Shown here piece by piece: positions 2,090 to 7,176 of a DNA stretch of 7,176 bases. The DNA is from Escherichia coli (GTDB lineage Bacteria; Pseudomonadota; Gammaproteobacteria; Enterobacterales; Enterobacteriaceae), in assembly GCF_965641715.1 (NCBI RefSeq), contig NZ_OZ282458.1; one strand, 5' to 3'. A program made the translations under genes and the position numbers. The first letter of the stretch is position 1, and each line of letters begins with the position of its first letter. The notes under the pieces were generated by a model. The model worked only from the letters and a program-made list of their open reading frames with translations. It was not told the DNA's origin and made no database searches.

Positions 2090-2280
2090 TTTCAGCAGTC
2101 TCTGGCTGGCAATTCCTGCGTGATTCACATGGCTGCATAGCTATGCATGTGGTTAAAATTTACCGGGTGCGATCGCGGCAGTTTTTCGGGTGGTTTGTTG
2201 CCATTTTTACCTGTCTGCTGCCGTGATCGCACCGAACGCGTTTCTGCGGTGCGGGCAACGGATGTTATGGTAAATACAAT
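2090..2280. other. cer: cer-like plasmid multimer resolution site (XerC/XerD core plus upstream accessory region with an ARG-box-like palindrome).
   Basis: The XerC-type arm GGTGCGGGCAA is at 2248-2258. A 6-bp central region CGGATG is at 2259-2264. The XerD arm TTATGGTAAAT at 2265-2275 is identical to the cer XerD arm. Upstream, GCCATTTTTACC...GCTGCCGTGATCGC..GAACGCGTTT resembles the cer accessory sequence. The palindrome TGCATAGCTATGCA at 2134-2147 lies about 107 bp upstream, where an ArgR box is expected. Confidence 0.75.
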
Positions 2281-2300
2281 ATGCAGCCAGTCTTAGAGAC

Positions 2301-2329
2301 GAAAAGTCCGCCCAGAAGACTGACTTTTC
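2301..2329 (-). terminator. Possible transcription terminator hairpin downstream of the 68-aa gene (8-bp stem GAAAAGTC/GACTTTTC, 13-nt loop, weak U tail).
   Basis: There is a perfect 8-bp inverted repeat at 2301-2308 and 2322-2329, 4 nt after the stop at 2333-2335 on the minus strand. The trailing sequence is only moderately U-rich. Confidence 0.3.
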
Positions 2330-2332
2330 AGA

Positions 2333-2539
2333 TCAACCTTCAGCATCTAACTTGTCTATCGCTTTTTTATTGCGCCGATAGGTAGCCATTAGTTCACCAT
2401 CGCCTGATTGTAAGTCACGACCTGCTTGCTCAGCATAGGTATCGTTTACAGTCTTAGCGCCTTTTTTATAGGCCTTTTTAACATCATCAAATCCGGCTTG
2501 GATGACTTCTTTCGGCTTTTCTTGAGGTAATTTAGCCAT
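2333..2539 (-). CDS. Hypothetical small basic protein (68 aa), the second gene of a coupled two-gene operon.
   Basis: Its ATG (rc of 2537-2539) lies inside the overlap ATGGCTAA with the stop of the upstream 127-aa gene, which implies translational coupling. It is Lys-rich and hydrophilic. I recognise no family by eye. Confidence 0.5.
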   Translation of the reverse strand: MAKLPQEKPKEVIQAGFDDVKKAYKKGAKTVNDTYAEQAGRDLQSGDGELMATYRRNKKAIDKLDAEG

Positions 2540-2915
2540 GCTGTGAATCCTCTATAAGGTTGATTATTTTTCCAACAGATAAGACGGCATCTTCTGTGTC
2601 GCTGATTTTATGATTTATCCAACCGTCCTCTATCTTTAATTTGTTCACTACTCCTAATGTAAAAACAACCTTTTTTTCAGGAAAGAAAATTGCAAAGGTT
2701 CTACTTTTCTCTTTCCAATCAGAGGGCGGCGTCGAACGGAACGCTACATTCCTCGATTTAAGTATCGCTTTGATTTTACTAATTAATTCTTTTTTTTGTT
2801 TATTGCTGAGATTTTTGACGAACCCTTTGCTGAGATTGTCTGTGTAATCATCAAAAGAAATATCAACTGGTTTGTTTTTTTGTTTTTTATCAGATAGATG
2901 AACAATGTTTGACAC
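2532..2915 (-). CDS. Hypothetical Lys-rich protein (127 aa), GTG start, AT-rich foreign gene.
   Basis: GTG start at 2913-2915 (rc), preceded by AGGA 6 nt upstream. An in-frame stop lies 10 codons upstream, so no longer ORF is possible. The protein has no internal Met. Its stop overlaps the start of the 68-aa gene. Codon usage is about 30% GC, unlike the plasmid backbone. Confidence 0.5.
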   Translation of the reverse strand: MSNIVHLSDKKQKNKPVDISFDDYTDNLSKGFVKNLSNKQKKELISKIKAILKSRNVAFRSTPPSDWKEKSRTFAIFFPEKKVVFTLGVVNKLKIEDGWINHKISDTEDAVLSVGKIINLIEDSQHG

Positions 2916-3059
2916 TGGATATCCTGCTTTTTGATGAATGAATACTCAGAAGAGTAGCGGAACTGTCTTGTTAGTCACAGAGGTAGAGTATCAATTCTAC
3001 GATAGATGGGTTCGAAGATCCGGCTGAGACCGTTCAGTACGCGGTCGAGATGTTATGTT

Positions 3060-3097
3060 GGGGTCTGAAGTCCAATGGAACGAAAACGTACGTTAGT
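3060..3097 (+). mobile_element. Solo 38-bp terminal inverted repeat of a Tn3-family transposon (gamma-delta/Tn1000-like). The GGGG outer end is at 3060 and the element interior points rightward.
   Basis: GGGGTCTGAAGTCCAATGGAACGAAAACGTACGTTAGT matches the Tn3 IR GGGGTCTGACGCTCAGTGGAACGAAAACTCACGTTAAG at 30 of 38 positions. Its core CCAATGGAACGAAAACGTACGTTA matches the gamma-delta IR as I recall it. I found no inverted partner copy anywhere in the window. Confidence 0.7.
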
Positions 3098-3519
3098 GAA
3101 GTAACTGTATGATATATCAAGACATAATAGACATAGAAAAACGCCATCAAAACGGTGTCTTTTTAATCGAAAATTGGCACTTAACGGACGGCATTGTCTA
3201 CTAATCGATTTTTAAGACGATAATTTTCCTCTTACCGTACATTTTCGTACGGTTGGCCCTCAAACCCCATGTTCAATGTAATGACCGTCGAAATTGCCTT
3301 TACGGGCATGAAGCAACCAGGAGCAATCATTGGCAAAGGTAACTAGAGTTCAATGCATGGTAATCATTTTTGAGCTTGTGATGCATAGAGTTGGTTGCTG
3401 TTCCATTGCGTCTCAAACTCCGTCAAGATGCTCGCCGTAAAAGCGAGCATGTCTAGTATGCCTGTTCCGCTACTGATTTTTGATGGGCGAATTCAGGGCT
3501 GGCTAGCCACCAAGAAAAA

Positions 3520-4581
3520 TTACTTTATTTCATCAAACAGGTGAGATGCAGTATAATAAACGCTTTGATCAAAGCGTCTCTCTGGGCTTAATTTATTTTG
3601 CCCGCCATTTAAAATTATTTCTTTTAATACTGATGGTGGAAGGATGGGTTTTGTTCTTCTTGGGTGATCCATATAAGCTTTTGTTATTTTTCCGTTTAGC
3701 GAGAACTCTTTATCACTTTGATATCCAAAGTTCATCTCAGTATAAATTCTATTGATGTTTGTCTTGTTTTTGCTCGCAATTTCATACACCATTCTGGCGA
3801 GTCTGGCTGATGATCTCATTAGTCTGCTGGCAGATGAATTGTTATATGAGGATCTATCAATAAAGGTTCGACACAAAGCAAAATCACTCCAGATGAATAT
3901 GTCAAAGGCATTTTGATCTAATATTGGGCTCTTGCCTTTTGTTTTCCATAATGGTTGCATTAAAAAAGGTTTCTGGTAATCAAGAAAATTTTCTTGGAAA
4001 GTGTTTAGGCAATTTAATATATTTTCTTTCTTTGAAAGAACTTCAGTTTCATTCCCCCAGTGCTGTATGCTTTCGCATGTGGATTCAAATATTTTTCTTA
4101 TTTCATGGAATTTATCGCTGCAAGAGTGCATTATGCCAAGGGCACAATAAGAAGTGCTTGCAGGTCTTATTACAATCTCTGAACTCCATTCGCTCTCGTT
4201 TTCTTTATATGTCGTGCTATCTGGGAGTACGGTTAATTTTATTTCTAGTGCTTTTAAAAAACTATTGTTTCCTTTTATAACTAGATCTATTCCTTTTATG
4301 TCATCATAAGCATACTGTTGGTATGGTTCATATTTTTTCTCAAATTGAAATTCAAGATCACTATTTTTTAATGTTGTGTTAAAAACGAAGTCAAAAGATA
4401 CTTCTTTGGCATGCACTTTTAAATCCTTATCTAAATAAAGATAAATCGGATTCATTTTGTTGTCTCTCATATAACATGCTAGAGAGGTGGGAAAAGAACT
4501 GTTAAATTGGTTCTTTCCCCACAGATCGCTCTCTTTCCTGTTGGTGTTTTTTAAACCATAAAGAGATTCTATTTTGCTCAC
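3520..4581 (-). CDS. Candidate Type II restriction endonuclease (353 aa) with a PD-(D/E)xK-like motif, divergent from the C5-MTase gene. GTG start with a strong AGGAG RBS.
   Basis: The ORF has low GC like the MTase. It sits head-to-head with the MTase, 87 bp apart. GID(99)...LE(113)IK(115) fits D-x13-E-x-K. The GTG start is 6 nt after AGGAG, and an in-frame stop just upstream rules out a longer ORF. I cannot place it in a named REase family by eye. Confidence 0.55.
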   Translation of the reverse strand: MSKIESLYGLKNTNRKESDLWGKNQFNSSFPTSLACYMRDNKMNPIYLYLDKDLKVHAKEVSFDFVFNTTLKNSDLEFQFEKKYEPYQQYAYDDIKGIDLVIKGNNSFLKALEIKLTVLPDSTTYKENESEWSSEIVIRPASTSYCALGIMHSCSDKFHEIRKIFESTCESIQHWGNETEVLSKKENILNCLNTFQENFLDYQKPFLMQPLWKTKGKSPILDQNAFDIFIWSDFALCRTFIDRSSYNNSSASRLMRSSARLARMVYEIASKNKTNINRIYTEMNFGYQSDKEFSLNGKITKAYMDHPRRTKPILPPSVLKEIILNGGQNKLSPERRFDQSVYYTASHLFDEIK

Positions 4582-4592
4582 TTTTTGCTCCT

Positions 4593-4612
4593 GACGTCAA
4601 TTTATTGACGTC
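4593..4612. promoter_or_regulatory. Perfect 9-2-9 inverted repeat GACGTCAAT-TT-ATTGACGTC in the R/M divergent intergenic region. It is a candidate operator.
   Basis: It is exactly palindromic, checked base by base. It directly abuts the AGGAG RBS of the endonuclease gene at 4588-4592 (rc) and lies about 57 bp upstream of the MTase ATG. TTGACG within it is a -35-like hexamer. Confidence 0.4.
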
Positions 4613-4668
4613 TATGGTGTGTTTCTATATCATGATGTGGAGTGATATGATAATGAGTTTTTTATGTT

Positions 4669-5826
4669 ATGAGAATAATTGATCTTTTTAGTGGGTGTGG
4701 GGGGTTATCCCTAGGCTTTTTGAAGGGGGGGTTTGATGTTGTAGGTGCTTATGATTTCTGGGATCCTGCTATTGAATGTTACAGAGATAATTTTAGCCAT
4801 CCGATAAAAAAACTAGATTTGAGCAATGTTGATGATGTGGTGAGGGAGCTTAAAGATATAGACTTCGATATGATTATTGGAGGGCCTCCTTGCCAAGACT
4901 TCAGTCATGCAGGTTTAAGAATTGAAGGTGCTAGAGCTAACTTAACTCGCTCATTTTCAGAAATTATAAAAAGAATAAAGCCAAAGTGGTTTGTGATGGA
5001 AAATGTAGATCGGGCATTAAGAAGTGGTGCCTATTTAGAAGCTCGAGGAATCTTTAAAGAATCAGGGTATGGGTTAACAGAAATTGTTTTGGATGCCAGT
5101 AAGTGTGGTGTTCCGCAAAAAAGAAAAAGATTATTTGTAATTGGAAAGCTTGACGTGAGGGATGGTTTTATCCTTAACGAAGTGATGTGCGGGATATCGA
5201 AAGATAGTATGACAGTTAGAAATTATCTTGGTGATTCATTGGGGATTGAGTATTATTACAGACATCCGAGAAATTATAACAGAAGGGCTATTTTCTCTAT
5301 TGATGAACCTGCGCCAACAGTAAGAGGGGTTAATAGACCGATACCTGATGGATATTTAGGGCATGCAGGCGATCCTGTCAGTATTTCTGAGAATGTAAGG
5401 CCATTAACAACCTTTGAAAGAGCAAGATTGCAAACATTTCCTGAAGACTTTAAATTTAAAGGTGCAAAAACAAATTTGGAGCAAATGATAGGTAATGCTG
5501 TTCCGGTTGAGTTAGCAAAATATGTTGCGGTGACAATCATGGAGTATGAAAAAAAACAAGTAAAAGGTATTTATGATAAAGAAGGCTTTAGGGCGTGGTT
5601 GCTGAATGAAAAGAAACTAACAAAAAGAACCTCTAGCGATATTATATCTAGATGTTGCAGAGGTGTTTCATTTTTTGATTCAGAGGGGGTGGATTTTTAT
5701 AACTGTGAAATAGATGAAATTATTATGAAACTGGAAAGGCTTGAATCGTTTGTCAGGCTTGGGGTTAGCCTGAAGTCTCAGTTAAGAAGGGCTTTTAAAT
5801 TATATTACGAATATTGTCGAAGGTAA
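4669..5826 (+). CDS. DNA (cytosine-5)-methyltransferase, HaeIII-like short-TRD architecture plus a C-terminal extension of about 90 aa.
   Basis: Motif I is DLFSGCGGLSLGF. Motif IV is GGPPCQDFS. Motif VI is ENV. Motif VIII is QKRKRLFVIG. Motif IX is RPLTTFERARLQTFPEDF. Motif X is GNAVPVELAKYVA. They occur in canonical order. It is close to the M.HaeIII N-terminus as I recall it (FSGAGGLDLGFQKAGF / GGPPCQSWS). An additional 90 aa or so follow motif X. Confidence 0.92.
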   Translation: MRIIDLFSGCGGLSLGFLKGGFDVVGAYDFWDPAIECYRDNFSHPIKKLDLSNVDDVVRELKDIDFDMIIGGPPCQDFSHAGLRIEGARANLTRSFSEIIKRIKPKWFVMENVDRALRSGAYLEARGIFKESGYGLTEIVLDASKCGVPQKRKRLFVIGKLDVRDGFILNEVMCGISKDSMTVRNYLGDSLGIEYYYRHPRNYNRRAIFSIDEPAPTVRGVNRPIPDGYLGHAGDPVSISENVRPLTTFERARLQTFPEDFKFKGAKTNLEQMIGNAVPVELAKYVAVTIMEYEKKQVKGIYDKEGFRAWLLNEKKLTKRTSSDIISRCCRGVSFFDSEGVDFYNCEIDEIIMKLERLESFVRLGVSLKSQLRRAFKLYYEYCRR

Positions 5827-5875
5827 TAAATACGAATTTATGTCTCTCAGGGGAGGGGGAGGGGATAAAAAGATC

Positions 5876-5902
5876 AAAGGATCCTCTTGTGATCCTTTTT
5901 TT
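5876..5902 (+). terminator. Rho-independent terminator-like hairpin (AAAGGATC / GATCCTTT stem, 7-nt loop, T7 tail). It is a conserved ColE1 element upstream of the RNAII promoter and would terminate MTase transcripts.
   Basis: The stem is at 5876-5883 and 5891-5898, followed by TTTTTTT ending at 5902. It is homologous to the pBR322 sequence aaaggatcttcttgagatccttttttt. Confidence 0.5.
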
Positions 5903-5915
5903 CTGCGCGTAATCT
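5887..5915 (+). promoter_or_regulatory. RNAII (primer) promoter: -35 TTGTGA at 5887-5892, -10 TAATCT at 5910-5915.
   Basis: It is homologous to the pBR322 RNAII promoter (TTGAGA-17bp-TAATCT) with the same 17-bp spacer TCCTTTTTTTCTGCGCG. Confidence 0.7.
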
Positions 5916-5926
5916 GCTGCCTGTAA

Positions 5927-6034
5927 ACAAAAAAACCACCGCTACCAACGGTGGTTTGTTTGCCGGAATCTAGAGCTACCAACTCTTTCTTCCGAAGGTA
6001 ACTGGCTTGGTGGAGCACAGATACCAAATACTGT
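5927..6034 (-). ncRNA. RNAI: RNAI antisense copy-number control RNA (108 nt).
   Basis: The rc of 5927-6034 begins ACAGTATTTGGTATCTG... and ends ...GGTGGTTTTTTTGTT, matching the ColE1 RNAI ends. Three stem-loops are preserved, with a few substitutions relative to pMB1. Confidence 0.85.
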
Positions 6035-6040
6035 CCTTCT

Positions 6041-6070
6041 AGTGTAGCCGCAGTTAGGCCACCACTTCAA
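6041..6070 (-). promoter_or_regulatory. RNAI promoter: -35 TTGAAG (rc of 6065-6070), -10 TACACT (rc of 6041-6046).
   Basis: It is homologous to the pBR322 RNAI promoter TTGAAGTGGTGGCCTAACTACGGCTACACT. Confidence 0.6.
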
Positions 6071-6449
6071 GAACTCTTAATATCTCAATCCACCTTGTCC
6101 AGTTACCAGTGGCTGCTGCCAGTGGCGCTTTGTCGTGTCTTACCGGGTTGGACTCAAGACGATAGTTACCGGATAAGGCGCAGCGGTCGGGCTGAACGGG
6201 GGGTTCGTGCACACAGCCCAGCTTGGAGCGAACGACCTACACCGAACTGAGATACCAACAGCGTGAGCTATGAGAAAGCGCCACGCTTCCCGAAGGGAGA
6301 AAGGCGGACAGGTATCCGGTAAGCGGCAGGGTCGGAACAGGAGAGCGCACGAGGGAGCTTCCAGGGGGAAACGCCTGGTATCTTTAAGTCCTGTCGGGTT
6401 TCGCCACCTCTGACTTGAGCGTCGATTTTTGTGATGCTCGTCAGGGGGG

Positions 6450-6485
6450 CGGAGCCTATGGAAAAACGCCAGCGGCGTGGCCTTC
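6450..6485 (+). other. oriV: ColE1-type origin of replication (RNase H processing and RNA-to-DNA switch region).
   Basis: It aligns to the pBR322 ori region ...gcctatggaaaaacgccagc.... The location is approximate, about ±15 bp. Confidence 0.6.
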
Positions 6486-6689
6486 TCTGGGTTCTTGTTT
6501 TTTGCTCACATGTTTCTTTTGGTGTTATCCCCTGATTCTGTGGATAACCGCATTACCGTCTTTGAGTGAGCTGATACCGCTCGCCGCAGCCGAACGACCG
6601 AGCGTAGCGAGTCAGTGAGCGAGGAAGCGGAAGAGCGTCGGAAGTTGCATTTTCTCCTTACACATCTGTGCGGCATTTCACACCCGGCA

Positions 6690-6800
6690 TGGCGCACTTT
6701 TCATACAATCTGCACTGATGCCGCATGGTTAAGCCAGTATACACTCCGCTATCGCTACGTGACTGGGTCAGGGCTTCGCCCCGACACCCGCAAGGTCAAC
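6690..6800 (-). other. oriT: bom/oriT region with the nic site CTGG|CTTA, between 6733 and 6734 on the minus strand.
   Basis: ccgcatggttaagccagtatacactccgctatcgctacgtgactgggtca is homologous to the pBR322 bom region. The rc gives ...GTATACTGG|CTTAACCATGCGG, the ColE1-family nick sequence. Confidence 0.65.
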
Positions 6801-6882
6801 GGCCTGACGCGCCCTGACGGGCTTGTCTGCTCCCGGCATCCGCTCACAGACAAGCTGTGACCGTCTCCGGGAGCTGTATGTG

Positions 6883-7074
6883 TCAGAGGTTTTCACCGTC
6901 ATCCCCGAAGCGTGCGAGGCAGCTGCGGTAAAGCTCATCGGCGTGGTCGTGAAGCGATTCACAGATGTCTGCCTGTTCATCCGCGTCCAGTTCGTTGAGC
7001 TTTTCCAGCAGCGTTAATGTCTGGCTTCTGATAAAGCGCGCCATGTTAAGGGCTGTTTTTTCCTGTTTAGTCAC
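6883..7074 (-). CDS. rop: Rop/Rom RNA-one modulator (63 aa, GTG start).
   Basis: The translation VTKQEKTALNMARFIRSQTLTLLEKLNELDADEQADICESLHDHADELYRSCLARFGDDGENL is identical to pBR322 Rop as I recall it. GTG at 7072-7074 (rc) is the known start. The longer 95-aa ORF is an artefact. Confidence 0.92.
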   Translation of the reverse strand: MTKQEKTALNMARFIRSQTLTLLEKLNELDADEQADICESLHDHADELYRSCLARFGDDGENL

Positions 7075-7176
7075 TGATGCCTCCGTGTAAGGGGGATTTC
7101 TGTTCATGGGGTAATGATACCGATGAAACGCGAGAGGATGCTCACGATACGGGTTACTGATGATGAACATGCACGG

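Follow-up and report, generated by a model that had tools for sequence, protein, structure and literature searches.

BsaHI has been cloned and groups with HgiDI and HgiGI, all of which recognise GRCGYC (Neely and Roberts 2008, PMC2413257). BsaHI cleaves GR/CGYC and its methylase, M.BsaHI, modifies the central C (PMC2413257). The putative enzyme HindVP is placed in the same group, and the motifs WGKNQF, (Q/K)(T/N)DKAF(A/S) and SPERRFD are specific to the family (PMC2413257). A PD-(D/E)xK core with catalytic E130-V-K132 has been proposed for BsaHI; alanine at P, E, the first R, F or D of PERRFD impairs the enzyme and R351A abolishes its activity (PMC2413257). The Pfam family PF09519 is listed inside the PD-(D/E)XK superfamily by Steczkiewicz et al. 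(PMC3424549), and no fold was assigned to HgiDI by Orlowski and Bujnicki (PMC2441816). Not all members are active: HindVP (H. influenzae Rd HI1040) lacks E-x-K and is inactive both in vivo and in vitro, and a Crocosphaera homologue likewise lacks E-x-K and is inactive (PMC2413257, PMC2615612).

Two other systems for restriction-modification (R-M) bear on gene control. In CfrBI, from the Citrobacter freundii plasmid pZE8, the cognate site lies in the -35 element of the methylase promoter, and methylation of this -35 lowers the expression of M and raises that of R (bioRxiv 10.64898/2025.12.04.692298). In Ecl18kI the promoters of R and M face each other (PMC3874152).

The endonuclease gene and its methylase

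The window, which is the whole analysed stretch of 7,176 nucleotides of Escherichia coli DNA, carries a restriction endonuclease gene of the HindVP/HgiDI/BsaHI family at 3520-4581 on the minus strand, encoding 353 amino acids (R). The R-sense strand upstream of the start reads GACGTCAGGAGCAAAAAGTG, in which the Shine-Dalgarno sequence AGGAG (4586-4590, minus strand, found by inspection) is followed after 6 nt by a GTG start codon. The N-termini of 28 relatives align from M1 and from L7-Y8-G9, which backs the GTG start, and RefSeq gives an identical 1062-nt CDS. The open reading frame, its orientation and its start were given in the same way in a preliminary description of this DNA, and sequence and homologues agree with it.

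R matches the Pfam family PF09519 (RE_HindVP) with E=6.8e-102 and 341.3 bits, where the cut-off is 25 bits, and the match covers residues 21-344 of R and positions 1-328 of the 332 in the model. It also matches the PADLOC model for Type II endonucleases PDLC03484 (REase_II) with E=3e-88, and NCBIfam has no model matching the protein. R is 100% identical to the RefSeq protein WP_000034299.1, "HindVP family restriction endonuclease", on the plasmid p2009C_3675-2; the product name derives from HindVP, a member of the same Pfam family. Together with the cognate methylase alongside, the matches to PF09519 and REase_II argue for the earlier proposal that this is a restriction endonuclease gene. The protein is no orphan; it belongs to a characterised family and already carries that annotation. 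The preliminary description recognised no family, which holds for reading by eye only, given that the PF09519 score, 341 bits, is far above the cut-off of 25 bits. Its suggestion of a new endonuclease lineage has to be abandoned because R belongs to PF09519 and is annotated in RefSeq. A new specificity finds no support either: the family is known for GRCGYC, to which the two sites of the palindrome described below also conform. This family specificity also puts the earlier comparison in size with GGCC-type enzymes beside the point.

The family is large, with 3220 relatives in a word-index search and 482 clusters at 50% identity in an exhaustive library. HgiDI and BsaHI were not found by name in the clusters of ten distant representatives, where the members are called 'HindVP family' or are unnamed; R is likened to BsaHI and HgiDI through the Pfam family and the published motifs and not through pairwise identity. 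Two of the family motifs are exact in R, WGKNQF at residues 21-26 and SPERRFD at residues 332-338 (codons for S332-P-E-R-R-F-D338 at 3565-3585, minus strand), the latter being the C-terminal motif that is essential in BsaHI. The third is QSDKEFS (residues 288-294), which agrees with the published (Q/K)(T/N)DKAF(A/S) in 5 of 7 positions. In larger alignments of the family most sequences have DKEF, and thus the published motif, built from 8 sequences, is probably too narrow.

R shares with BsaHI, HgiDI and HgiGI the PF09519 domain, WGKNQF, SPERRFD, E-x-K and a C5 methylase as partner, and it is close to BsaHI in size (353 amino acids against 369, the latter deduced from the 1110-bp bsaHIR gene). 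It differs from the published consensus in the third motif. The gene arrangement is also different, since the genes here are divergent with a dual-site operator between them whereas the BsaHI genes are just six bases apart (PMC2413257). Unlike BsaHI, HgiDI and HgiGI, R is found on a ColE1-type plasmid in Enterobacteriaceae. The gene itself matters little, being a correctly annotated member of its family with a commercially available isoschizomer, BsaHI, at the specificity expected for it.

The cognate C5 cytosine methyltransferase (4669-5826, plus strand, 385 amino acids) matches PF00145 with E=7e-63 over residues 1-290 and PADLOC PDLC03270 with E=2.8e-136 and 452 bits. As previously described, the two genes are head to head, with 87 bp between the start codons. 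A methylase homologue adjoins the R gene in 75 of 83 related loci. The methylase begins with MRIIDLFSGCGG; its residue 1 aligns with residue 1 of M.HaeIII, and motif I starts from residue 5. Beyond the C5 methyltransferase domain there is a C-terminal extension of about 90 amino acids (5539-5826, residues ~291-385) with no match in Pfam. The extension is present in a subset of the homologues, for example in Clostridia and Lentisphaerae (coverage 1-382 of 385), and in other homologues, where the palindrome is still there, the match stops near residue 295.

A separate group of loci from Pseudidiomarina and Idiomarina (L030-L035 and L065) has R homologues that match from about residue 46 on, and no methylase homologue was found within 4 kb of them. 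These copies look like solitary or truncated genes.

Catalytic motif, fold and expected activity

The PD-(D/E)xK motif proposed in the preliminary description, D99-x13-E113-x-K115 (codons from D99 to K115 at 4237-4287, minus strand), is borne out by conservation, by its position in a structural model and by comparison with BsaHI. It lies within residues 97-117, GIDLVIKGNNSFLKALEIKLT. None of the three residues varies among 28 close homologues (52-81% identity). Among 49 distant representatives (26-49% identity), D99 is kept in all 49, E113 in 43 and K115 in 44; E135, R139, P333, E334, R335 and D338 are invariant, and the position of E81 is acidic in 45. The E-x-K is lost in a small subclade of the distant homologues, which matches the published inactive members. 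E113-I-K115 in R corresponds to E130-V-K132 in BsaHI (PMC2413257).

AlphaFold models reached a pLDDT of 91.7 and 95.0, the first of these being the model of R, which was built from an alignment and has a pTM of 0.92. In the R model, D99 is at the start of the strand 98-104, E113 is on the adjacent strand 107-114 and K115 is one residue past its end. A strand at 76-82, which includes E81, precedes them, and a helix (140-169) and further strands (205-232) follow. As modelled, this order of core strands and helix is the canonical PD-(D/E)xK arrangement. The only coherent structural neighbours of the model are PD-(D/E)xK nucleases (SfsA, I-Ssp6803I and FAN1), with weak Z-scores of at most 6.8. A Foldseek comparison of the full model with the PDB brought no meaningful match, and no relative of the protein was found among PDB sequences at E up to 10. 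The family is without a solved structure, and the confident model resembles known nucleases weakly. The model thereby supports, at low scores, a PD-(D/E)xK fold class for R, and the different nuclease fold that had been raised as a possibility finds no coherent neighbour outside this class.

By homology, R would carry out Mg2+-dependent PD-(D/E)xK catalysis with D99, E113 and K115, probably assisted by E81 and/or E135, and the PERRFD element at its C-terminus would be essential. It would cleave unmethylated GR^CGYC, and the divergent C5 methylase would shield GRCGYC by methylating the central cytosine. Methylation to GR(m5C)GYC would create R-m5C, the motif recognised by McrBC of E. coli. The host of a plasmid with this modification should therefore lack McrBC or tolerate the modification.

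We consider it very probable that R is an active Type IIP enzyme cutting GR^CGYC, with a protecting divergent C5 methylase and a control region shared by the two genes. Because HindVP is inactive (PMC2615612), membership in PF09519 alone is no proof of activity, and R could be a family member that is enzymatically dead like HindVP of H. influenzae, so that the plasmid is effectively methylase-only. Neither HindVP nor the Crocosphaera homologue has cleavage activity (PMC2413257, PMC2615612), and several distant members of the family lack E-x-K. However, the inactive members are those without E-x-K, and R retains D99, E113, K115, E135, R139 and PERRFD. In comparisons with the orthologues in Citrobacter, Morganella and Providencia, pS is 0.65-0.77, which is saturated, and pN is 0.05-0.11, giving a dN/dS of about 0.04. 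This low ratio across enteric plasmids speaks against a dead enzyme, as do the full length of R with at least 99% conservation in 39 E. coli genomes and the upkeep of an elaborate R-M control region. Purifying selection, the kept catalytic and essential motifs and the intact methylase argue for an active enzyme and not a HindVP-like relic, and a dead R is very unlikely. GRCGYC is found 3 times in the plasmid where 4.2 are expected; there is no depletion, and the count is uninformative on the activity of R.

R could also be of the same family and fold with another or narrower specificity, for example GACGTC only. The operator sites are indeed always GACGTC in the window and in the relatives from Citrobacter, Morganella and Providencia. 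All characterised members of the family nevertheless cut GRCGYC (PMC2413257), and clades with 45-60% identical methylases and nucleases have GGCGTC...GACGCC at the same operator positions. The inner base of each operator site is fixed as T/A by TTGACG, and therefore only the outer position is free to vary. These outer R/Y positions do vary across clades (GACGTC, GGCGTC and GACGCC), as expected under GRCGYC recognition, which leaves little probability for a deviating specificity.

The palindrome upstream of the methylase gene

The 87-bp spacer contains a 20-bp palindrome, GACGTCAATttATTGACGTC (4593-4612), which is a predicted operator of the methylase promoter. It is a perfect 9-2-9 inverted repeat with the arms GACGTCAAT (4593-4601) and ATTGACGTC (4604-4612), which are 100% complementary, and it holds two GRCGYC sites 14 bp apart. 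Of the three GRCGYC sites in the window, the palindrome accounts for two, each in the form GACGTC and one in each arm. The plasmids of Citrobacter and Morganella have two GACGTC with the same 14-bp spacing in diverged flanks. The preliminary description had noted an operator-like palindrome between the genes, and both its conservation and its overlap with a candidate promoter make it look regulatory.

The palindrome was surveyed in 80 loci from one-genome-per-species contigs, with R identities of 42-81% and with R and M located in each. Of 83 related loci, 41 have the consensus GRCGTCAA-N4-TTGACGYC upstream of M. By gene order, it is found in the intergenic region of 34 of 36 divergent loci, upstream of M in 4 of 5 convergent loci, and in 3 of 26 loci with R followed by M, where it is again upstream of M and occurs only with a gap of more than 65 bp between the genes. 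None of the 8 loci with M followed by R has it. Since it is always upstream of M across these gene orders, the palindrome tracks the methylase's own promoter region. The density of GRCGYC in the divergent intergenic regions is 16.5/kb compared with 0.31/kb elsewhere in those loci, a 53-fold enrichment.

One of the two divergent loci without the palindrome, L008 in Chitinophaga silvisoli, has GACATCAAAATACTGACATC at the equivalent place, with both CpG changed to CpA. Deamination of m5C would produce just this change, which suggests a decayed operator.

The arm closest to M provides the -35 of a candidate methylase promoter (4605-4633, plus strand), with -35 TTGACG at 4605-4610, a 17-nt spacer and -10 TATCAT at 4628-4633, matching the consensus in 10 of 12 positions. 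With TTGACGTC at 4605-4612, this -35 overlaps the GACGTC site at 4607-4612; a change such as TTGACGTC to TTGACATC destroys GRCGYC and keeps TTGACG. All 39 distinct upstream regions share this layout: the M-proximal arm gives TTGACG, and a TATAAT-like -10 in the direction of M follows after 16-18 nt. The -10 agrees with TATAAT in at least five of six positions in 25 of the 39 regions and in all six in 11.

A candidate promoter for R (4647-4675, minus strand) has -35 TTCTCA at 4675-4670, a 17-nt spacer and -10 TATCAT at 4652-4647, and matches the consensus in 9 of 12 positions, so that its assignment is weak. Its -10 is upstream of the palindrome on the R-sense strand and faces the methylase promoter. 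TATCAT or TATTAT is found at the same offset in the compared enteric relatives, and 17 of 33 divergent loci have an extended -10 (TGnTAnnnT) in the corresponding place. A leader RNA made from this upstream promoter would contain the palindrome, which as RNA forms a hairpin of 8 bp with a loop of 4 nt, its end lying 1 nt ahead of the Shine-Dalgarno sequence; the 89-nt leader has a minimum free energy of -15.5 kcal/mol and a z-score of -1.9.

The palindrome overlaps the putative methylase -35 (TTGACG) and would be part of the 5' leader of R. In a naive cell that the system has just entered, the methylase promoter, still unmethylated, would be strong and would compete with the R promoter facing it. 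When the methylase modifies or occupies its two sites, the methylase promoter would weaken and the expression of R would rise, and such a switch would hold restriction back for as long as the host lacks protection. By analogy, this suggests control by self-methylation or by methylase occupancy as in CfrBI. The signal may be the methyl group, the occupancy or both, and the sequence does not discriminate between them.

The locus resembles CfrBI in being plasmid-borne, in having divergent M and R genes and no C protein, and in having its own site in the methylase -35, which is a prediction here. CfrBI, however, has a single CCWWGG site and m4C, in contrast to two sites in a 20-bp palindrome and a predicted m5C. 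The likeness to SsoII and Ecl18kI consists of divergent genes, facing promoters (candidates here) and a methylase acting on its own promoter (predicted here) (PMC3874152). The SsoII and Ecl18kI methylases bind a separate operator by an N-terminal helix-turn-helix (HTH), whereas the methylase here has none and the operator consists of its own target sites.

In a simpler explanation the palindrome is no operator for methylation or for the methylase: it would be just a strong -35, or else a hairpin in the leader RNA of R with an effect on translation or on the stability of the mRNA. TTGACG is in itself a near-consensus -35 hexamer, and the hairpin would be placed directly 5' of the Shine-Dalgarno sequence. 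A -35 needs neither the trailing YC nor an inverted copy 14 bp away, though, and both are conserved. The palindrome is also kept in convergent loci and in loci with R followed by M, which have no R downstream of it and where an R-leader hairpin is impossible. As the palindrome persists without a following R and the fold is unremarkable, with a z-score of only -1.9, a leader hairpin is rejected as its purpose. A 53-fold excess of the sites that the system itself targets is difficult to account for otherwise than by an operator, and the simpler explanation is unlikely as a whole. Methylation of the -35 in its simple form, on the other hand, does not account for the conservation of the distal half, which the -35 can do without. 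The distal arm is kept even in loci lacking a divergent R, a hint that two methylase molecules bind cooperatively or that both sites have to be modified.

Other known modes of control were considered for the locus. SsoII/EcoRII/MspI-type control is excluded because the methylase lacks the N-terminal helix-turn-helix extension. Control by a C protein is excluded because there is no C-protein gene, neither in the 87-bp spacer nor beside M and R, and the palindrome consists of target sites and not of C-boxes. The C-terminal extension of the methylase was rejected as an operator-binding domain since many loci with the palindrome align over only the first ~295 residues.

A broader reading is that the palindrome is an ancient operator, consisting of two of the methylase's own target sites over the -35 and travelling with the methylase gene. 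The palindrome goes along with HgiDI/BsaHI-type methylase genes in at least six bacterial phyla and in each gene order that gives M a promoter of its own. We hold this reading tentatively, as one that may well be right but about which doubt slightly prevails. A dual-site operator in the HindVP/HgiDI/BsaHI family was not found described in the open-access literature; the enzyme is known, and the conserved dual-site operator is the sole point that is mildly novel. If the reading is true, the epigenetic switch of CfrBI would have a relative here that uses two sites and m5C, and no R-M operator of this kind described so far would be conserved nearly as widely. The dual-site operator would also offer an uncomplicated case, open to testing, of an R-M system that needs no controller protein to sense its own methylation.

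Plasmid context and distribution

The replicon has a match to RNAI, the ColE1 copy-control antisense RNA in Rfam (5927-6032, minus strand, 65.9 bits), a Rop open reading frame (6883-7170) and mobilisation genes of the mbeA/B/D type (263-1828), and is therefore a mobilizable ColE1-type plasmid. The R-M genes are part of a 3.6-kb cargo cassette of low GC content (2254-5867, about 35-40% compared with 52-60% in the backbone). The backbone (1-2253 and 5868-7176) shares 99-100% identity with that of the E. coli plasmid NZ_OW967970.1, in which the EcoRI R-M system occupies the same position as the HindVP-family cassette. A shared backbone with different R-M cargo implies that R-M cassettes have been swapped in one ColE1-type backbone. 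It is an example of how small mobilizable plasmids of E. coli exchange R-M modules.

Downstream of R, the cassette has two overlapping open reading frames that share its orientation, on the minus strand, of 68 and 127 amino acids (2333-2539 and 2532-2915). All related plasmids carry them as hypothetical genes, and searches of Pfam, NCBIfam, PADLOC and PHROGs gave no match above threshold for either. Between the stop codon of R and the next of these frames there are about 600 bp of non-coding sequence (2916-3519). Two segments, 3060-3268 (209 bp) and 1817-2129 (313 bp), are absent from plasmid variants of 6715 bp such as NZ_AP024118.1.

The plasmid p2009C_3675-2 of E. coli O111:H8 (7175 bp) is 99.9-100% identical to the window. 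Among 5426 complete E. coli genomes, the R gene with its upstream region is present in 39, plasmid-borne in all of them and with at least 99% identity. A tblastn search of PLSDB gave the R protein in 24 plasmid records, and the matches extend to Salmonella with 99.4% identity and to Citrobacter and Morganella with about 81%.
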